DNA from: a bacterium
GTDB taxonomy: Bacteria > JAAXHH01
Direction of reading: 5' to 3'
Assembly: GCA_965203885.1 (NCBI GenBank)
Contig: OZ241920.1
Location: 3,858,323-3,922,322, forward strand
DNA length: 64,000 nucleotides
The notes beneath the pieces are model-generated. The model was given only the letters and a program-made list of their open reading frames with translations, made no database searches and had not been told where the DNA came from. Below, in pieces: positions 5,135-43,897 of the stretch. A program made the position numbers and the translations under genes. How positions within the stretch are numbered: the stretch's first letter is position 1; every line of letters begins with the position of its first letter.

Positions 5135-5315
5135 ACGTAGGGGCGACCCTTGTGGTCGCCCGCCCGGAAACGGCGGCCAAGTCGTCCCGGGGGGAGCTTG
5201 GTACTGGTGGCGTGGCTTGGACCGAAGAGGGCACCCACAAGGGGTGCCCCTACGGGGATTCAAAATCGAGGCTCGATCCGTTATGAACACCTGTATTTGC
5301 GGGACGGCACACTAA
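5135..5315. repeat. Bipartite REP/MITE-like intergenic element, copy 1 (about 180 bp)
   Basis: Contains hairpin GTAGGGGCGACCCTTGTGGTCGCCC (5137..5161) and hairpin GGGCACCCACAAGGGGTGCCCCTAC (5229..5253). Its reverse complement aligns by hand to 43717..43897 with about a dozen mismatches. Confidence 0.8.
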
Positions 5316-9839: not shown

Positions 9840-10694
9840 CTAGTTTGCTTGCGGTCCTAGCCTCAAAATCTGAATGGCCCTGCGTTCTCCCTCAGTCGGT
9901 TTGATACGTCCATGATAGGGCTGTTCTGCGTGACACACTATGCAGAGAACAGCTAGGTTCTCCGATCGATTATCCCATGTAACACCATTCTTGTGATGTA
10001 CATGAAGCAAGTGCTGATGGTTAGGAGCTGAGAGTCCAACATGGCACTCGTCGCATCGCCAATTTCGTTTCTTTTTTACAGAGACTGATTTGCGAGACCA
10101 TTCAGAGACGTAGCCTCCTCGCGGCGACGTTTGATCCGAGTATTTGGGTAATGTCTGGAAAAACGTCTCGTATGTCTGGAAAAAATCGCGCAAGTTAAAT
10201 TGTACCCACAACTGATTCTGCTTCCGCGTATCCCAATTTGAGCTGTAGCCCTTCCAGTTGACAGCCCAAAGACAATTTTTGCAGACGCGCAGTCGGGCCT
10301 CGATTTCACTGCCTTCAATATCATTGACTGCGAACAATCCATCTTGTCGTGTCGTCACGACGTACCTTTCGAACCGACGACTCCTACGCATCTGCCGAAT
10401 AGTCGCACATTCATAGATATGAAATCGTCGTGCATCTTCAGGAAAGTTCTGGAGTATGTACGTGCTCTGTCTTGTTTCCTTAATGTATAGGACGATCTGC
10501 TCCCCTTTGAATTTAAGCAGTCTCCCAGGTCCGGGCCTTACCTCGGTAATCTGAGCGTCTATCCCAGTTGATAGTTTTCTCCTAAGTTCTCTTACGGGCG
10601 CTGGCACGTACGGTGCGAGACTCCAATTAGATGGCCTTGCACCCATCTGATGCACAAGGTTTTCGAGTGGCAAGAAGTTTACACCTGTCTTCAC
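9840..10694 (-). CDS. zorE: HNH endonuclease-domain protein (ZorE-like)
   Basis: 284 aa. The C-terminus reads CDECHVGLSAPNHQHLLHVHHKNGVTWDNRSENLAVLCIVCHAEQ, which is an HNH motif with Cys pairs. Its GTG start overlaps the upstream stop (GTGA at 10691-10694). Confidence 0.7.
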   Translation of the reverse strand: MKTGVNFLPLENLVHQMGARPSNWSLAPYVPAPVRELRRKLSTGIDAQITEVRPGPGRLLKFKGEQIVLYIKETRQSTYILQNFPEDARRFHIYECATIRQMRRSRRFERYVVTTRQDGLFAVNDIEGSEIEARLRVCKNCLWAVNWKGYSSNWDTRKQNQLWVQFNLRDFFQTYETFFQTLPKYSDQTSPRGGYVSEWSRKSVSVKKKRNWRCDECHVGLSAPNHQHLLHVHHKNGVTWDNRSENLAVLCIVCHAEQPYHGRIKPTEGERRAIQILRLGPQAN

Positions 10695-11395
10695 TGCACC
10701 GTTTCCAATATCTTGACAATCTGCTCCTTAGTGTTAGTAAGCACTCGAAATTCAACGCGCCGTGATGCCACTGTGTCCTCTCGTGAACCTCGAAAAACCA
10801 AACGACTGGAAGAAAGACCATTCGCTGTGATGAGTTTGCGTGCCCATTTTCTTGATGGTCGAACCGATCGCAACCCCAAACAGTATTCTAGTACCGCGCG
10901 GGTTCTAGCTTGGGAGAGTTCCATGTTGTGAAAGTACGCCTCGTCCTCAGTTTGCGCACCATCCCACTCTGATGACGTATGGCCCTCGAGGCGGACCTCT
11001 ACAATTGCATTTCTATACCGTTCCAATACAAGAAGGTAGCGTGGGAAGAATTCTTCTAGGATCCGCTTGAACTTCGGCCTGAGTTCCGCCGCCGCCGAGG
11101 CAAACAGAACATCTGGCGCCTTGAAACGTATCGAGAGAGTCTCCCGATCCAACTCCGCGGCCCATCGCGGCAGATCGTTCTCGAACTCTTCGTTGAGTGA
11201 TTTGTGGATCTCCACCTCAGAATCTTGCCATGTGACAACGATCTCTCGGATTTTACTCTGGACCTCGACTATGGGCCGGATATAGGTAATCGCAATAAAG
11301 AGAAAAATGATCATGAGACCAGCCATCATGTCCGCGACAGATACCCATTGCTCATCGTCGGACCTGCTGCCTCGCCCGAACAGCTTTTGCGTCAT
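10691..11395 (-). CDS. zorB: MotB/OmpA-like stator subunit (ZorB-like)
   Basis: 234 aa. It has a single N-terminal TM helix with the conserved Asp (VSVADMMAGLMIIFLFI). The C-terminal OmpA-like region reads LEGHTS...NMELSQARTRAV...SRRVEFRV. There is an ATGA overlap with the upstream gene at 11392-11395. Confidence 0.75.
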   Translation of the reverse strand: MTQKLFGRGSRSDDEQWVSVADMMAGLMIIFLFIAITYIRPIVEVQSKIREIVVTWQDSEVEIHKSLNEEFENDLPRWAAELDRETLSIRFKAPDVLFASAAAELRPKFKRILEEFFPRYLLVLERYRNAIVEVRLEGHTSSEWDGAQTEDEAYFHNMELSQARTRAVLEYCLGLRSVRPSRKWARKLITANGLSSSRLVFRGSREDTVASRRVEFRVLTNTKEQIVKILETVQ

Positions 11396-12810
11396 CGATT
11401 GACGTCCCTTGCGATTGCGATTATGCGTCTAAGCTCTTCGACTAACGGCCCATAGTCACGCACAAACTTTTCTGACAAGGCGGCCAGGTGCTGTCCCATA
11501 GCTTGTATGTTCTGACGAAGTGCTTCCTGCGTTCTCCTTTCAAAACTATCAAATGTACTTGTGATCTTTTTCTCGGTCTTCTGGAACGAGGCATTAAGGG
11601 CATTTGTAAATCGTTTCTGCGATTCATTGGAATTGTCCAAGAGCGCGATGTACCCGTGTTGGAGTTCTTGATGGGCCTCTTGTTGGCGGCCCAGCACCTG
11701 AGCCGACTGTTCGACTACGTTTTGGACCGATTGCTGAAACCTGCTTGTCAGCGTCTCAAGATTCTTTTCGATCATAGGAAACGCTTCAAGGGCTTGAGTC
11801 TTCAGCGAAGAGATTGCATCTAGGTGGCCGTTGAGATCCTTCGTCGCGCCTGACAGTCGCACTTGGATCTGCTCCATATTGTCGAGCGTTTCTGGAATGC
11901 TCCCTGCGTAGCCGACAATTTCGCGCAGGGATTTTTCGGATTCTTTGATCCCCTGTAGCGCCGTGTCAAAATTCCGTTCCAGCTGTTCGACGTGCTCCCG
12001 ATATCTCTCCTGCCATCTGAGCAGTGCACCAACAGCCTCGTTGAGCTGCTTGAAATTGTCGCCGAATTGCTCGTTCAACTGGGTGTTGAAGTCACGAATT
12101 ACCTCTTCAAGAGCCTCAATGAGTGCTTTCGAATTGCTCTCGGCCATTGTTTTTGCGAACTCACGAAATTCCTTGATCAGATCCTTCTGGCCATCCATGA
12201 AGTCCATGCGGAGCCTCTGTACCTGAGTAAGCAGACTGCTCTCGCTATCAGCAGAGATCGCCTTTCTCAGATTTTCCAAGGCCGTGCGCTGCTGTTCGGC
12301 TCCGTTGTCGATGGCCTCCTTGATCAACTCTAGAGTCCTGTGGATGGCAATGGCGGGATTTTCCTCCTCGACCGTGCCATCATGCCTTCTTGCATGTAGA
12401 AATCGAAGGCGAATCGCCATCAAGATGCCGAGAATACTGGTCAAAAATGCAAATTTCAGACCCTCCAACAATCGGGGCACACTCTCATCGATTTTCTCTA
12501 CATTGAAACCAATGAGGCCCCAGAAGATTCCGACGAAGGTACCGAGCACACCGATCGTGGTCAGCAAAGCGGGTCCACGAGCGTAAAGTGGACTATCCGG
12601 TGGCTGGCCCTTGAAATGGTAAAAGGCTATGAAAATCGCGGCAGTGGATATACCCAGAATCCCGACAGTGGATATATCAATCTCAAAGACAAAGATCCCC
12701 AGAATACCGACAGTGACAAGAACCAGAATTACGATAGCCGGCACAGTCTGGTCCTGAGATTTCGGCTGTGAATGACTACCCTTCACCTCTGCCATATTTC
12801 TGCCTTGCAC
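11392..12810 (-). CDS. zorA: MotA/ExbB-like proton-channel protein with a long coiled-coil tail (ZorA-like)
   Basis: 472 aa. N-terminal TM helices carry LLTTIGVLGTFVGIFWGL...LKFAFLTSILGILMAI, the MotA_ExbB signature. About 300 aa of heptad-like, Glu/Gln/Leu-rich helix follow. The real start may be the ATG at 12795 (MAEVKG). Confidence 0.75.
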   Translation of the reverse strand: MQGRNMAEVKGSHSQPKSQDQTVPAIVILVLVTVGILGIFVFEIDISTVGILGISTAAIFIAFYHFKGQPPDSPLYARGPALLTTIGVLGTFVGIFWGLIGFNVEKIDESVPRLLEGLKFAFLTSILGILMAIRLRFLHARRHDGTVEEENPAIAIHRTLELIKEAIDNGAEQQRTALENLRKAISADSESSLLTQVQRLRMDFMDGQKDLIKEFREFAKTMAESNSKALIEALEEVIRDFNTQLNEQFGDNFKQLNEAVGALLRWQERYREHVEQLERNFDTALQGIKESEKSLREIVGYAGSIPETLDNMEQIQVRLSGATKDLNGHLDAISSLKTQALEAFPMIEKNLETLTSRFQQSVQNVVEQSAQVLGRQQEAHQELQHGYIALLDNSNESQKRFTNALNASFQKTEKKITSTFDSFERRTQEALRQNIQAMGQHLAALSEKFVRDYGPLVEELRRIIAIARDVNR

Positions 12811-27585: not shown

Positions 27586-28356
27586 ATGGAAAATCGCATC
27601 GCCCTCGTGACCGGCGCCGGCCGCGGCATCGGTCGCGCCATCGCTCTCGGACTTGCCGCCGAAGGCGCGCGAGTCGCGGTCACCGCGCGCAGTATGGACG
27701 AGCTGGAGAGCCTGGCCCGCGAAGTGAAGGCCGCAGGAGGAGACGCGCTCGTGGTCCCCGGCGACCTGTCCGACCGATCAACGCCGGACCGCATCGTCCG
27801 GACCGTCACCGAGACCTGGGGTCCCGTCGAGATCCTGGTCAACAACGCCGGCGTGGGCAGCAGTATGAACCCCAAGCCCCTGGTCGATTTCGACGACGAC
27901 TTCTGGGACCTGACGCTCATGATCAACCTGACGGCGCCCTACCTTTTCACGCGGCTGGTCCTTCCCCCCATGATGGAGCGCGGTTGGGGGCGGATCATCA
28001 ACATCGCGTCCATTGCCGGGCGGATCGGGACCCTGCACGGCGCCGCCTACGGCGTCAGCAAGCAAGGCCTTCTGGGTCTGACCCGGACCACGGCGGTCGA
28101 GGCGGCCGCCCACGGCATCACCGCCAACGCCCTCTGCCCCGGCGTGACGCGCTCCCGCCTGAACGATCTGCGCCTGGAGTACGACTCGCGGCGGCTGGGG
28201 GTCAGCTTCGAACAACTGGAAAGGGAATCCACTCCGCTGGGGCGGCGTCTGGAACCGGAAGAGGTGGCGGTCCTGGCCGTTCAACTGGCTCGGGACGAAG
28301 CCCGGGGCATCAACGGACAGTCCATCAACGTCTGCGGCGGGCGGGTTTTCAGTTAA
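27586..28356 (+). CDS. SDR-family oxidoreductase (FabG-like)
   Basis: Has TGAGRGIGRAIA, NNAG and YGVSK motifs. Confidence 0.85.
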   Translation: MENRIALVTGAGRGIGRAIALGLAAEGARVAVTARSMDELESLAREVKAAGGDALVVPGDLSDRSTPDRIVRTVTETWGPVEILVNNAGVGSSMNPKPLVDFDDDFWDLTLMINLTAPYLFTRLVLPPMMERGWGRIINIASIAGRIGTLHGAAYGVSKQGLLGLTRTTAVEAAAHGITANALCPGVTRSRLNDLRLEYDSRRLGVSFEQLERESTPLGRRLEPEEVAVLAVQLARDEARGINGQSINVCGGRVFS

Positions 28357-28367
28357 GCCGCCCGGAG

Positions 28368-28530
28368 GGGCGATTTCCTAATCGCCCACCAGGAACGGCG
28401 ATTTCCAGTCGCCCAGTCTTCTTCCACGTTGCCCTGCGATTTGGCCGCGGGAAAGCGTACAAGGGGGACTGCCGTCCCCCCTAACCCCCTACGCGGTGGC
28501 TAGAAACCGCCGCTCCTGTCGGCGATTGGA
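28368..28530. repeat. Cluster of short REP-like hairpins
   Basis: GGGCGATT-TCCT-AATCGCCC (28368..28387), GGCGA-TTTCCAG-TCGCC (28397..28413) and GGGGGAC-TGCC-GTCCCCC (28463..28480). A GCGGTGG...CCGCCGC stem follows, then half of a GGCGATT hairpin at the intron junction. Confidence 0.7.
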
Positions 28531-29174
28531 GTCGCGGTAGGGACGCCGGTTGCCCAGCGCCCCCCGCGCAGATCCGTGCGTGCCCGTTAAGGCACACGGC
28601 TCCTACCTCAGGTAGTGACGGCAGGGTGCGACGCCTCCCGTATCCGACCCCCGCCTGTATCACGGTAGTCCGGCTCTGGGTCCGGGCCGTGCTTTGGTGG
28701 GCCGAAACTCCCCTTGGTTCCATCCCTTCGCTCCACGGACTCCGCAGAGAGTTGCCCCTCCTTGTTCGCCCGCTTCATCACTACTATGGATGAATCCGAT
28801 TGCTTCCTCTTTCTCCTCATGGGGTACGGCTTTCTCCTTTCCCATGAGGCCCCGGCTTTCACCGGGGTCAGAGCAAGCCCTCCCAGGTCCCGACACAAGA
28901 TGTACGTACGTGCATGGGTTCTTTGACACCGCGGAGCCCGGCCGTCCCTCACCTTGGCGGTCCAGCCGGTGTTGCCTTCGACCGCGATTACAGCCTCGGC
29001 ACTTCCGAACAAGGAGCTTTCGATGCTCAATAGCCTGCCCATACGCACCGCTACCGACGCTTCGCCGACACCCTCACGAGTGCCCACGCACGGCTCGCGG
29101 AGAAACGTGGATGGTTGGTCCTTTCGTTCCAGCGGACTTTCACCGCCTATCTTGTGCCAGTTAGCCTGGCGCAC
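28531..29174 (-). mobile_element. ORF-less group II intron (ribozyme core only, about 644 nt)
   Basis: On the minus strand the 5' end is GUGCGCC (29174..29168). Domain V-like GAGCCGUGUGCCUUAACGGGCACGCACGGAUC is at 28602..28571, with the AGC triad and a 2-nt bulge. A domain VI-like stem with a bulged A lies 7 nt before a ...GAC 3' end. Internal AAUCGC (rc of 28984..28989) is complementary to the last 6 nt of the 5' exon (GCGAUU), an EBS1/IBS1 pairing. There are no reverse-transcriptase motifs in any frame. One domain V position deviates: G.A where G.U is expected. Confidence 0.75.
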
Positions 29175-29231
29175 AATCGCCGCTCCCGCCGCTTCCCTTA
29201 TGTCGGCGGCCGGGACTATAGTGGTCGCGCT

Positions 29232-30500
29232 ATGCCATCCAACCAATCAGAGCTCAATCGACGAGGATTTTTCCGGAGATCCGGGCTGGCCGCCGCCGCT
29301 CTCTCGGCTCGAAGCTACGGGCGGGTCATGGGGGCCAATCACCGGCTTCGCATCGGGATCATCGGTTGCGGAAAGATCGCCGGGAGCCACCACCTGCCCA
29401 AGCTCCTGAAGATGTCCGGGAGCGCCAACGTCGAGGTCGTGGCCGTGTCGGACGTCTACCGGTCCCGGGCGAAAAAGTTTCAGAATCGGATCTCGAAGGC
29501 GGGCGGACGCGCCGTCGAGAAGGTCCACCACCAGGACCTGCTGGAGATGACGGACATCGACTATGTCGTCATCGCCACCCCGGAGCACTGGCATCACCGG
29601 CAGACTCTCGACGCGCTGGATGCCGGCAAGCACGTCTACTGCGAAAAGCCCATGACCCACACCATCCCCGAATCCCAGGAGGTGGTTCGAAAGGTCCGGG
29701 AGACGGGTCTCAAATTGCAGGTCGGCGTCCAGGGGATGAGCGACGACAGCTACTCCAGCGCCAATCGGGCGATCCGGGCCGGCAATCTGGGCACGGTGGT
29801 GGAAGCCCAGATGGAGTATGTCCGAAACCACCCCCTCCACAGGGGCCCCTGGCGCAGAGGCATCCGGTCCGACGCGCCCAAGCCTCGCGACCTGGACTGG
29901 GACCGCTGGCTGGGGCCGGCGCCCAAGCGTCCCTGGTCTCCCCACCGTTTCTTCGAGTGGCGCAACTACAGCGACTATTCGGGAGGGATCTCCACGGACC
30001 TGTTCATTCACCGCCTCACCCGCGTGCTGAAGGCCTGCGAACTGACCTATCCGAATTCGGTTGCCGGGTTGGGGGGCATCTACATCTGGGACGACGGGCG
30101 GGACATGCCCGACAACCTGGAGATGGTCGCCGAATACCCGGCTGTCCAGGGAATCACCAAAGGTATGACGCTTCACATGCTGGGCACCATGGCGAACAAG
30201 CATGGTGTCGAGCACTGTATCCGGGGGCACAAGGCCACACTGGTCTTCACCAGGAGAGGGTGGAAGATCCTGGATCAGGGATCCGGCAAGGTCGTGAAAA
30301 CCCACAGGAAGACGGGCGCCGAGGACATGGCGCTCCACCATCGCAACCTGCAGGCGGCGATTCGGGACGGCAAGGCTCTGGCGTGCCCCGCCGAGTTGGG
30401 ACTGCGCGGCGTGGTCGCGGTGGCCATGTGCAACGAGTCCTGGGCCCGAAGAAAGCTCATGGCATGGGATTCCCGGAAACAGGAGATGGTCGAAGCGTAG
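29232..30500 (+). CDS. Gfo/Idh/MocA-family oxidoreductase with a TAT signal
   Basis: The ATG at 29232 gives MPSNQSELNRRGFFRRSGLAAAALSA, then RIGIIGCGKIAGSHH and CEKPM. The TTG-extended track ORF (29115) would run through the intron 5' end. Confidence 0.85.
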   Translation: MPSNQSELNRRGFFRRSGLAAAALSARSYGRVMGANHRLRIGIIGCGKIAGSHHLPKLLKMSGSANVEVVAVSDVYRSRAKKFQNRISKAGGRAVEKVHHQDLLEMTDIDYVVIATPEHWHHRQTLDALDAGKHVYCEKPMTHTIPESQEVVRKVRETGLKLQVGVQGMSDDSYSSANRAIRAGNLGTVVEAQMEYVRNHPLHRGPWRRGIRSDAPKPRDLDWDRWLGPAPKRPWSPHRFFEWRNYSDYSGGISTDLFIHRLTRVLKACELTYPNSVAGLGGIYIWDDGRDMPDNLEMVAEYPAVQGITKGMTLHMLGTMANKHGVEHCIRGHKATLVFTRRGWKILDQGSGKVVKTHRKTGAEDMALHHRNLQAAIRDGKALACPAELGLRGVVAVAMCNESWARRKLMAWDSRKQEMVEA

Positions 30501-32382: not shown

Positions 32383-33498
32383 GTGCTGAAGCGATTCTAC
32401 GCGGACAATTTCCGCTGTCTGAAAAACTTTGAAGTCGAGCTCGACCAAGCTTGTGTCCTCTTGGGGCACAACGGCACGGGCAAGACCTCGATCCTGGACG
32501 TTCTGAGGAGCATTCAGAACCTGGTGGTCCGAGGTTCGAAGGTCGAAGCGGCGTTTCCGGCACGAGACGTGTCACTTCAGGAGGACGCTCGCCGCGACCG
32601 CCGGAAACAGCGCTTCGAGGTAGAAACCAGCACCGACGGTGACTCCTATCGGTACGCACTGACCGTGGAGCACACTCCCGACCACCGCAAAATGCGGATC
32701 ATCGAGGAGACCCTGCAACACAGGGAGAAACTGATCTTCGAATTCAGGAACGGCGAGGCGCAACTCTATCACGACGATTACAAAAAGGGCCCTTCGTACC
32801 CGTTCGACTGGTCGCAGTCGGGAATCGGCGTCCTGAATGCCCGACCGGACAATCGGAAGCTCACTCGGTTCAAGCAGGAGGTGGCGAGCTACATCGTAGT
32901 CGGCTCCTGCCCTCCGCTGGTGGAGCCGGAAACCCGATCGGAAGACGTTTTCCTCGAGCCTCTGATGCAGAACTTCGTGGCTTGGTACCGGCACACCGCC
33001 CAAGAAAACATGGGAGAGATACCAAATTTCTTCGAGGTCCTGCGCCAAGCCCTTCCTGCCTTCGATTCCATCATCCTGACGGAATCCGGAGAGAATTCAC
33101 GCGCCCTCAAAGCCGTGTTTCGGAGTCCTTCCGGAAAGGCGATCCGTTATGGATTCGACCAGATCTCTGATGGCCAAAGAGCCCTGATCACGTTGTACAG
33201 CCTGATTCTCCTGCCCGGCGAGAGCCGAACCTCGTTGTTCATCGACGAACCCGACAACTTTCTCGCCCTGAGGGAGATTCAGCCCTGGCTTGCTCACGCC
33301 GTCCAGTGCTGCGGAAAGTCGCTGGAGCAAGTGGTCGTGGCCTCGCATCATCCGGTAACCATCGACTACATGGCCGGCGCCGGCGGCCGTTGGTTCTACC
33401 GGGAAGAAGACGGTCCCGTTCGGGTGAACCCGGAGCCGAAGGTCCCCGTAGACGGCCTTTCACTCTCGGAAACCATCGCCCGGGGCTGGGAACGGTGA
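32383..33498 (+). CDS. ABC-type (AAA_21-like) ATPase, AbiLi/RloA/OLD-N-terminal-like
   Basis: 371 aa. Walker A GHNGTGKTS, signature-like ISDGQRALITL, Walker B LFIDEPDNFL and H-loop ASHHP. Confidence 0.75.
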   Translation: MLKRFYADNFRCLKNFEVELDQACVLLGHNGTGKTSILDVLRSIQNLVVRGSKVEAAFPARDVSLQEDARRDRRKQRFEVETSTDGDSYRYALTVEHTPDHRKMRIIEETLQHREKLIFEFRNGEAQLYHDDYKKGPSYPFDWSQSGIGVLNARPDNRKLTRFKQEVASYIVVGSCPPLVEPETRSEDVFLEPLMQNFVAWYRHTAQENMGEIPNFFEVLRQALPAFDSIILTESGENSRALKAVFRSPSGKAIRYGFDQISDGQRALITLYSLILLPGESRTSLFIDEPDNFLALREIQPWLAHAVQCCGKSLEQVVVASHHPVTIDYMAGAGGRWFYREEDGPVRVNPEPKVPVDGLSLSETIARGWER

Positions 33499-35449: not shown

Positions 35450-35559
35450 GCTTTCCCCTGAATCGGACAACCTCGGTGGCGGATGAAGGATCGTGCCGGT
35501 TTTCCGCCGGCGGGTACCGCTATCCTCCTTCAGGGGACTTCTTACAATCCCTGATGATC

Positions 35560-35813
35560 GTAGGGGCACCCCTTGTGGGTGCCCTGCGGGGTCGCATGGT
35601 TCCCCGGCTGAGTCGCCGCTCCACGTCGCCATTCCCGGCGCCCGGAAGGACGCCGATCCCAGTCGGCGCCGAGGACGACGCCGCTCCAGACGCCGCTCCC
35701 GGTCGGCGACTAGAAAGTCGCCGCTCCACCCCCCCCGGTTCGGTAGTGCCCAGGCAATGGCCGGCGGACGGTGGCGCCGTTCGGGGGAGGGCGACCACAA
35801 GGGTCGCCCCTAC
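35560..35813. repeat. Bipartite REP-like element, copy 2 (long spacer with extra hairpins)
   Basis: GTAGGGGCACCCCTTGTGGGTGCCC (35560..35584) and GGGCGACCACAAGGGTCGCCCCTAC (35789..35813). The spacer holds GGCGACT-AGAA-AGTCGCC and two AGTCGCCGCTCCAC motifs. Confidence 0.75.
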
Positions 35814-35881
35814 GAGTCGTTCGACAGCGGCGACGCGGTGGGTGCCGCCAACGGACAATCCCCGCCCAGTTTCTCGCGGGA

Positions 35882-43716: not shown

Positions 43717-43897
43717 TAGTGTGCCGTCCCGCAAATACATGTATTCGTAGCGGATCGAGCCTCGATTTCGAATCCCCGTAGGGGCACCCCTTGTGGGTGC
43801 CCTCTTCGGTCCAAGTCACGCCATCAGTACCAAGCTCCCCCCGGGACGACTCGGCCGCCGTTGTCGGACGGGCGACCACAAGGGTCGCCCCTACGTC
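43717..43897. repeat. Bipartite REP/MITE-like element, copy 3 (inverted relative to copy 1)
   Basis: GTAGGGGCACCCCTTGTGGGTGCCC (43778..43802) and GGGCGACCACAAGGGTCGCCCCTAC (43870..43894). The whole 181 bp matches the reverse complement of 5135..5315. Confidence 0.8.

Follow-up and report, generated by a model that had tools for sequence, protein, structure and literature searches.

The locus and the element

The 64-kb stretch of bacterial contig OZ241920.1 analysed here (called the window below, over its whole length) contains a complete group II intron of 644 nucleotides without an open reading frame (ORF) of its own, located at 28531..29174 on the minus strand, with its 5' end at 29174 and its 3' end at 28531. 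The intron lies in an 875-bp spacer between two genes, a short-chain dehydrogenase (SDR) gene (27586..28356; Pfam adh_short, E = 1e-55; GC content at third codon positions (GC3) of 0.84) and a gene for a Gfo/Idh/MocA oxidoreductase with a twin-arginine translocation (Tat) signal (29232..30500; Pfam GFO_IDH_MocA, E = 2e-25; GC3 0.82 for the open frame 29115-30500). Both real neighbour genes are on the plus strand, and the intron is therefore antisense to both. The ATG of the oxidoreductase gene (29232) is 58 nt from the intron 5' end, on the opposite strand. A previous description of this DNA, made from the letters alone (the sequence-only reading), had placed the element between genes and downstream of an exon; the intergenic position holds, but the "upstream exon" is not a gene. 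Exact-protein look-ups for both flanking genes gave no match. The locus itself was found by sequencing-run look-ups in sponge and coral metagenomes.

Two ORFs in the vicinity were considered as genes and rejected. The minus-strand 212-aa ORF at 28608-29246 has no Pfam match and a GC3 of 0.67, compared to 0.82-0.87 in the real neighbour genes, and is a shadow frame, as expected from its earlier interpretation as translated structured RNA. The minus-strand ORF at 29247-30341 also lacks a Pfam match, has a GC3 of 0.62 and is likewise a shadow frame.

The Rfam model group-II-D1D4-6 (RF02005) matched the element with 163.8 bits, for a gathering score of 49, over the full model (1-225) at 28917-29140, and this was the sole gathering-level match in the window. 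The model of domains V and VI (D5-D6, RF00029) matched with 36.9 bits (local E = 2e-5) and its match stops exactly at 28531, while a D5-D6 covariance model made from 25 members of the intron's own family gave 97.9 bits for the window copy. The minimum free energy z-score of the 644-nt element is -6.9, and the D5 sequence was found once in the window and 0 times in shuffles. The limits of the element are further set by the RNA depth described below and by an intron-less allele on DNA contigs, which skips precisely 28531-29174 with GT..AC ends, so that the length of about 644 nt proposed by the sequence-only reading is exact. With both covariance models matching and covariation in all six domains (see below), the proposed ORF-less group II intron between genes is confirmed as a structurally intact one. 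It represents a known kind of element, of which it is a good example, and not a new type of system. No RT/maturase (reverse transcriptase, RT) was found in the element, the internal 212-aa and 156-aa ORFs being without Pfam match, and no YADD-type motif was found near it, in agreement with what had been read from the frames.

Secondary structure

A consensus structure was obtained with RNAalifold from nine ORF-less members of the family. It shows the canonical six domains with 165 pairs, 96 of which carry double changes. When 163 pairs of this consensus were counted, 94.4% of the cells were paired compared to at most 41% in slid controls, and none of 500 shuffles scored as high, the structure having been derived from the same alignment on which the pairing was counted. 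The window copy fulfils 157 of the 163 consensus pairs and is the best of the nine members in this respect. For D5-D6, an alignment with explicit structure had 98.5% of the cells paired and compensatory double changes in 12 of 27 pairs; these values were not reached by any of 500 shuffles, and slid controls remained at or below 47% paired.

The intron begins with the 5' splice-site consensus GUGCG (29170..29174), read directly from the minus strand at 29174 as part of the GUGCGCC reported before, and ends with GAC at 28531. GUGCG is the 5' end of most of the ~40 family copies with a located 5' end, the variants being GAGCG, AAGCG and GUGAG. Domain I (28883..29169) includes the RF02005 match and consensus helices 1-12, which are 82-100% paired, most of them with double changes. 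Domain II (28798..28882) consists of helices 13-15, with double changes in 9 of 15 pairs. In DNA and RNA contigs of several sequencing runs, ~68 nt of domain II (28806-28875) are swapped for other sequence (the alignments skip 68 nt with 70 letters in between), which makes domain II a module that varies between co-occurring copies. It is followed by J2/3 (GGA, 28795..28797), in which G28797 is γ, the partner of the last intron base C28531 (γ'). Domain III (28719..28794), with the conserved CGAACAA and GGAGCGAAGG, is made of helices 16-19 and has double changes in 13 of 19 pairs. In relatives that encode an intron-encoded protein (IEP), the frame of this protein stays open across the domain III RNA. 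The region 28700-28800 was considered as an N-terminal IEP remnant (~37 retained codons) and this was rejected, as the consensus fold corresponds to the RNA of domains II-III and the relatives' frame is merely open there.

Domain IV is represented by a remnant without ORF (28605..28718), with a basal helix and a conserved hairpin (ACGGCCCGG..CCGG..CCGU, 28690-28662) in helices 20-23; this remnant is retained by all independent ORF-less members. Domain V (28571..28602) is 32 nt long, GAGCCGUGUGCCUUAACGGGCACGCACGGAUC, and has the AGC triad and two-nucleotide bulge (AC) already noticed by the sequence-only reading, a UAAC loop closed by U·G, and a G·A opposite the triad G. Within the family, 98.7% of the domain V cells are paired and 5 pairs show double changes. 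Domain VI (28534..28567), also recognized before, is a long helix with a GCAA tetraloop and a bulged A, the branch site, at 28538 (7 nt before the 3' end); 7 of its pairs show double changes, its loops are of the GNRA type and CCCUA·CCGCGAY is conserved across the family. A possible α-α' contact (5 bp, CCUUG/CAAGG) was identified by eye only.

The A opposite the G of the AGC triad had been taken as a sign that the copy may be inactive. The base is indeed present, but inactivity is not supported. The same A occurs in 23 of 25 family D5s, among them those of L003, L033, L046 and L067 (loci of relatives are designated L), four full-length introns that are nearly identical to one another, have intact RT ORFs and occupy separate sites in a single genome. 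The window copy itself appears to have been inserted recently (see below). The A is a lineage-wide trait and not a lesion. One ORF-less family member, L051:3801-4448, lacks the 3' strand of D6 and the 3' terminus (…GTCCCT--TGAGAA) and is a decayed mini-intron, in contrast to the intact window copy.

Exon recognition

The domain I fold contains three exon-binding sites (EBS), each covarying with the intron-binding sites (IBS) of the exons across relatives. EBS1 (AAUCGC, 28984..28989, minus strand) is located in a hairpin loop of domain Id. As stated in the sequence-only reading, it is an exact 6-bp complement of the last six exon bases, GCGAUU (IBS1, 29180-29175). At the same place in the loop, ~30 relatives with many different sequences likewise carry the complement of the six bases that end their exon (for instance AATCGC/GCGATT, AGTCGC/GCGACT, AGTCCC/GGGACT, GGGTGC/GCACCC, CACAGA/TCTGTG and GTTAAA/TTTAAC). 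The window EBS1 is one base off the AGUCGC of relatives and fits its own exon without wobble. EBS2 (GCUCC, 29013..29017, minus strand), located directly after a conserved CGAAA, pairs with IBS2. Its position covaries with the exon at about -12 to -8 in relatives (CCTACAT/ATGTAGG, CATGCA/TGCATG, GCCGA/TCGGC), the pair in the window being GCUCC/GGAGC. EBS3 is the A at 28924 (minus strand) in GGUGUC-A-AAGAACC and is complementary to the first 3'-exon base; Watson-Crick complementarity to that base is seen at this column in 47 of 53 distinct copies and at no other column in more than 29 of 53, and the pair in the window copy is A-U. At the intron ends, γ and γ' are complementary in 32 of 36 copies (G-C 17, A-U 14, U-A 1), with G/C or A/U in the nine ORF-less members.

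The window copy has all four pairings, EBS1/IBS1 (6 of 6), EBS2/IBS2 (5 of 5), EBS3/IBS3 and γ-γ'. The 5' exon recognition sequence (29175..29186, minus strand) is composed of IBS2 (GGAGC, 29186-29182), one spacer G and IBS1, and the 3' exon start (28521..28530, minus strand) of IBS3 (U, 28530) and, after it, the 3' arm of a palindrome (AAUCGCC, 28527-28521). The 12-13-nt target of the element would thus read GGAGCGGCGATT^T, or GGAGCGGCGATT^TCCAATCGCC in its longer form (^ marks the insertion point). Judging from these pairings, exon recognition is of the IIB and not of the IIC type, with 5 bp in EBS2/IBS2, 6 bp in EBS1/IBS1 and 1 bp in EBS3/IBS3, the 3' end being set by γ-γ'. The IIC class, which includes the hydrolytic endonucleolytic ribozymes (HYERs), was considered for the size of the element and the hairpin at its site, and was discarded since EBS2 and a 6-nt EBS1 covary with the exon. 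Instead of the IIC/HYER pattern of no EBS2, a 3-4-nt IBS1 and insertion just past a stem-loop, the insertion is inside the loop of the hairpin.

Relatives and loss of the ORF

Relatives were searched with a D1-signature scan of one genome per species, which gave at least 120 loci in Acidobacteriota, Planctomycetota, Actinomycetota, Proteobacteria, Rhodothermales and others, and the family D5-D6 covariance model found 3' ends in all loci listed. One locus, L019, from an Acidobacteriota metagenome-assembled genome (MAG; OZ253580.1), is 94.4% identical to the window copy over all 644 nt and likewise ORF-less. Full-length relatives of 1917 nt (L003, L033, L046, L067 and L087) and of 1912 nt (L028, L081 and L096) are 84-87% identical to the window copy over intron nt 1-537 and 80-88% over nt 553-644. 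They carry ~1.27 kb extra in a single gap between these two collinear blocks, and the D1-to-D5 spacing is 366 nt in the window copy versus ~1634 nt in the ORF-bearing relatives. The additional sequence is an open frame of ~490-520 aa with YADD and matches to Pfam RVT_1 (E = 2e-35) and NCBIfam TIGR04416 (group II RT/maturase; 353 bits for a cutoff of 300, residues 83-455); a Pfam search found no HNH domain in the IEP of the relatives. The alignment with the 1912-1917-nt relatives, collinear over intron nt 1-543 and again from about nt 553 to 644, places the deletion scar, where ~1.27 kb of RT/maturase coding sequence is gone, at 28623..28632. By this comparison, the element is a domain-IV deletion derivative (~1.27 kb) of a ~1.9-kb RT/maturase-encoding intron.

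The window copy and L019 have the identical deletion junction, with different flanks and in different genomes, and a third near-identical but truncated copy was found at a further site. The common scar at different flanks shows that the ORF was lost a single time and that the mini-intron moved afterwards. Deletion-junction and clade-D5 pattern scans of metagenome contigs gave no match and added no insertion sites.

Among the matches listed, 68 D1 motifs have a downstream D5-D6 match, and 57 of these copies are long (most of ~1.9 kb, one of 1.2 kb and five of 2.9-3.9 kb) and 10 are ORF-less (643-692 nt); the remaining span, L010 (293 nt), looks spurious. Within the same set, ORF-less copies occur in Acidobacteriota, Pirellulaceae, Rhodothermales and Alphaproteobacteria. 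The ORF-less copies of the window clade, Pirellulaceae and Acidobacteriaceae each have the same D5 sequence as an ORF-bearing relative, which indicates that the loss of the ORF was repeated and independent. Two other arrangements were observed in the family. The D1-to-D6 spans of L069, L111, L005, L077 and L114 are 2.9-3.9 kb instead of 1.9 kb, and these loci may be twintrons or nested/interrupted copies. L089 and L107, in a Mariniblastus MAG (CBDFNH010000008.1), are 1928-nt full-length family introns in head-to-tail arrays, three within 8 kb, with 25-68-nt spacers that regenerate the target (…CCGCGAT^AAYTCCC…GCGACAATTAG^GAAAGCGCC…).

Absence of the intron from related populations

To compare alleles of the locus, DNA contigs of four sponge metagenomes were aligned to it at 96% identity or more (sequencing runs are designated X). 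In X2 and X6, a joint from 28530 to 29175 omits exactly 644 bp with GT..AC ends. In X3 and X4, contigs of the oxidoreductase gene run leftwards from 29175 into TCCTGTCGGCGATTGGA, which corresponds to window positions 28514-28530 (17 nt). As the 28530 side is joined to 29175 in all of these contigs, the site is therefore empty in the X2, X3, X4 and X6 populations, with no target duplication and no scar. X3 also contains a 385-nt ORF-less contig that runs across the deletion scar with 1 mismatch (99.7% identical), at a depth of 33.8 compared to 13.4 for the flank. Furthermore, intron 5' ends in the DNA runs are preceded by the same 12-nt IBS, and beyond it the flanks are different (loose ends at 29186). 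Together, these alleles argue that the element was inserted here recently and that it spread after the loss of its ORF.

Contigs covering the RT region of an L003-type intron (~92-95% identity) were present in all four DNA runs checked, and a helper is therefore available in the community. The depth of these contigs is close to that of the host flanks in three runs and lower in X1.

RNA from close relatives

In eight metatranscriptome runs, the contig depth was near zero outside ~28524-29205. Inside this interval it was ~4-43 in the smallest run (X25) and ranged from tens to thousands in the seven others. X32, X33 and X34 contained RNA with the EBS1 allele of the window copy. In X27, X29 and X30, an RNA contig joins 28532 plus one base to 29174, i.e. 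head to tail, at a depth of ~17-18. Neither the joints listed for the DNA runs nor any of the family loci listed contain this junction.

The head-to-tail junction fits full-length intron circles, such as those known in vitro from an IIF intron (PMC3753933). The odd base at this junction may reflect variation between copies, or else misreading of a 2'-5' link by the RT. Lariat read-through was rejected as the source of the junction, as the joint is at the 3' terminus (28532 + 1 nt) and not at the branch A (28538). Tandem DNA copies were also rejected, as no such junction occurs in any of the loci listed; the copies in the L089/L107 arrays are separated by spacers of 25-68 nt.

Target palindrome and other features of the window

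When joined, the exons (GGAGC-G-GCGATT^T-CC-AATCGCC) give a perfect palindrome of 7 bp, and the intron occupies its loop. Most relatives of the clade are found in a similar palindrome with compensating arms (GGCGAC..GTCGCC, GGCGGC..GCCGCC, GGGGAC..GTCCCC). Since the RNA of the intron recognizes no more than IBS2, IBS1 and IBS3, a repeated palindromic target, similar to the repetitive extragenic palindromic (REP) elements, best explains the 3' arm. An association of group II introns with REP elements has been mentioned only in passing, for 2 of 9 copies in P. putida KT2440 (PMC1525189).

Unoccupied sites resembling the target were found in the window at 28364 (+), 28516 (-), 35727 (-) and 49069 (+), in addition to other REP-like palindrome pairs. 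The first of them, GGAGGGGCGATT^TCCTAATCGCC (28364..28386), is on the strand opposite to the intron, 145 nt away. The site at 35705..35727 on the minus strand, GGAGCGGCGACT^TTCTAGTCGCC, is identical to sites used by relatives with EBS1 AGUCGC; the intergenic region that holds it (35540-35840) is dense in GGAGCGGCG units. Palindromes resembling REP elements or miniature inverted-repeat transposable elements (MITEs), cgtagGGGCGACCcttgtGGTCGCCC and GGGGCACCccttgtgGGTGCCCctacg, occur as intergenic inverted pairs 90-230 nt apart at 5143-5255, 35565-35815, 43783-43895 and 49469-49612.

Three other regions of the window were noted. Three consecutive minus-strand ORFs at 9840-12810 have a GC3 of 0.49-0.57, compared to 0.8 or more in most window genes, and may be a horizontally acquired island. 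A plus-strand gene at 32383-33498 contains AAA_21 (AbiEii-type) and AAA_15 ATPase domains, a gene type often found in defence or toxin-antitoxin contexts. The 1301-aa plus-strand ORF at 51830-55735 (with a lower GC3 of 0.65) contains a YADD motif by chance and is not RT-like in its local context.

Proposed cycle

We infer that the element depends on a trans-acting IEP. It was almost certainly mobilised by an enzyme borrowed from full-length relatives, as bacterial ORF-less introns are in almost every case accompanied by related introns that encode an IEP (PMC4424553) and as Thermosynechococcus ORF-less introns with one shared domain IV deletion are mobilised by the IEPs of relatives (PMC2882425). 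The single deletion in domain IV of a ~1.9-kb intron, described above, spared the base of this domain and all of domains I-III, V and VI. The shortened intron then spread and entered the loop of a REP-like palindrome on the antisense strand between two plus-strand genes. In the proposed cycle, after transcription of the minus strand, the RNA would fold and excise itself, either via the A28538 branch point or by a circle pathway, and the RT/maturase of a full-length relative would bind the excised RNA. The resulting ribonucleoprotein would reverse-splice into other 12-13-nt sites and the inserted RNA would be copied into DNA, probably at replication forks, because the IEP is without endonuclease domain. 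The intron family most resembles the bacterial E/F-type lineages, which is a resemblance and not a class assignment. The element itself is most likely a selfish passenger without host function.

Taken as a whole, we regard it as highly probable that the element is a non-autonomous, mobile mini-intron of the IIB type and of the Rfam D1D4-6 family, which was derived by deletion, is moved by the RT/maturase of a relative and is a selfish passenger. Several observations weigh against this. The RF00029 score is 3 bits below its gathering score of 40. By Pfam and motif searches there is no RT gene in the 64-kb window, and the RT regions of the L003 type are traced to the community and not provably to the same genome. 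No sigma-70-like promoter was found around the element on either strand; the scan also showed no terminator on the minus strand. The RNA contigs are 90-99% alike, so that they reflect the intron lineage and not provably the window copy, and metatranscriptome libraries can contain DNA. The RNA depth of the flanks is zero, and because of this ligated exons were never observed. Finally, the presence/absence polymorphism could in principle be due to precise loss and not to gain.

Alternative explanations

The element might be an immobile relic that has lost its ORF, neither moves nor splices and is eroding in the spacer. The lack of an IEP in the window, the antisense orientation to the neighbours with no recognisable promoter, the non-canonical G·A in D5 and the loss of the 3' end in L051, an ORF-less member of the same family, would all be in line with such decay. 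However, the window copy has kept nearly all consensus pairs and all four exon and end pairings, and the G·A is found throughout the lineage, including ORF-bearing introns with several copies. The locus is moreover empty in four related populations, 99.7%-identical copies exist elsewhere, and RNA with the EBS1 allele of the window is found in three runs, all of which makes a relic very unlikely. A takeover by the host, in which the stable excised RNA or its antisense transcript would regulate the adjacent oxidoreductase gene or have another cellular role, may be suspected from the position of the 5' splice site, on the opposite strand and 58 nt ahead of the oxidoreductase ATG, and from the great excess of intron RNA over neighbouring mRNAs in the metatranscriptomes. 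High RNA levels are nevertheless expected of a multi-copy, compact and possibly circular RNA, and copies occur in unrelated contexts. Closely related strains lack the insertion, which is therefore no conserved part of the locus, and a host role is the least probable of the explanations considered.

The ORF might also have been lost without need for a helper, the element being a ribozyme, HYER-like or self-integrating, that acts alone in cleaving DNA or in reverse-splicing into it. ORF-less IIC introns (HYERs) hydrolyse DNA without protein, and an IIB1 intron fully reverse-splices into DNA without protein in vitro (both PMC11754743); at low salt, IIE and IIF ribozymes show high reactivity (PMC3753933). 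Within the family, ORF-less minis of ~645-690 nt arose repeatedly, and their RNA is abundant. An RT would still be needed to fix the reverse-spliced RNA into DNA, though, ORF-bearing relatives are present in every DNA run checked, as the ordinary helper model expects, and recognition is of the IIB type whereas known HYERs are IIC. We therefore consider a protein-free element very unlikely. A bolder form of this idea, which we hold to be about as improbable, starts from the repeated independent ~650-nt ORF-less minis, the very high RNA levels and the circle-like junctions. The minis would then be protein-independent, sequence-programmable DNA-targeting ribozymes, similar to HYERs but recognising 12-13 nt in the IIB manner, or else circular RNAs that are stable and serve some function of their own in the sponge symbionts.

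Comparison with known introns

The helper-dependent mini-intron favoured here is close to the ORF-less TeI3 introns of Thermosynechococcus elongatus, which the IEPs of related TeI4 introns mobilise (PMC2882425), and in which one domain-IV deletion removed the ORF and the breakpoint is common to copies at different sites. Like TeI3, it is a compact, presumably helper-dependent RNA with good EBS/IBS pairing with its flanks, EBS that diverged to new targets and mostly intergenic copies. The TeI3 introns differ in being of the chloroplast-like (CL)/IIB type, cyanobacterial and all in one sequenced genome, with a helper activity that was shown experimentally. The element described here belongs to Rfam D1D4-6, has an endonuclease-less IEP in its relatives, a REP-like palindrome as target and a putative helper. 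Its host, unlike that of TeI3, is a sponge-associated bacterium whose closest relatives are Acidobacteriota MAGs.

The family shares with the IIE and IIF introns (PMC3753933; PMC3552965) a compact IIB-like ribozyme of 450-700 nt without the ORF, an IEP with RT and X domains and no endonuclease domain, EBS1 and EBS2 covarying with the exon, a long D6 and a D5 loop that is non-GNRA or longer (5-nt UAAUU and UAGGA in relatives). The circles formed by IIF in vitro match the head-to-tail RNA junction of the window family. Class F is known in Solibacter (Acidobacteria) and Kuenenia (Planctomycetes), i.e. in phyla where the window family is common. Unlike in IIE/IIF, the window D5 loop is UAAC closed by U·G and not a 5-nt loop, and the characterised E/F introns keep their ORF. 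No link of Rfam D1D4-6 to a named intron class was found in the literature.

With the HYERs (PMC11754743, citing Liu et al. 2024), the element has in common that they are naturally ORF-less, bacterial, multi-copy group II ribozymes of ~600 nt. HYERs are IIC introns with ~7 bp of recognition and without EBS2, whereas the element is IIB-like with covarying EBS1, EBS2 and EBS3 and a 12-13-nt target. As with the IIC introns at terminator or attC stem-loops (PMC1702495; PMC7923331), the insertion site is associated with an inverted repeat in intergenic DNA. Those introns insert just past the hairpin by means of a 3-4-nt IBS1 and the stem-loop (PMC1702495; PMC7923331), whereas the loop of the hairpin holds the element, with the 5' arm serving as IBS1. 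More likely than not, the palindrome is a target that occurs repeatedly and not a structure that is recognised. In Clostridium tetani, C.te.I1 (PMC4424553) is also a bacterial ORF-less intron with an intact ribozyme; it is single-copy, and no related IEP is present in its genome (PMC4424553). Unlike C.te.I1, the element is multi-copy and recently mobile, and its ORF-bearing relatives are common in sister genomes and in the same metagenomes.

Significance

At this locus, a structurally intact, multi-copy ORF-less derivative is seen in the course of its spread, through presence/absence polymorphism, in an uncultured sponge symbiont lineage. For the annotation of this region, an "empty" spacer of 875 bp is now explained and two spurious ORFs are removed. 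To our knowledge, there is no experimental model for the Rfam D1D4-6 family with its endonuclease-less IEP. Compact RNA-guided DNA-targeting tools are under development from ORF-less introns, and this naturally minimised 644-nt ribozyme, with a 12-13-nt target code mapped by covariation, is a candidate for such a tool. Among the matches listed, about 1 in 7 complete family members is a mini-intron, with independent origins in several phyla. This suggests that miniaturisation is a regular strategy of the Rfam D1D4-6 family.

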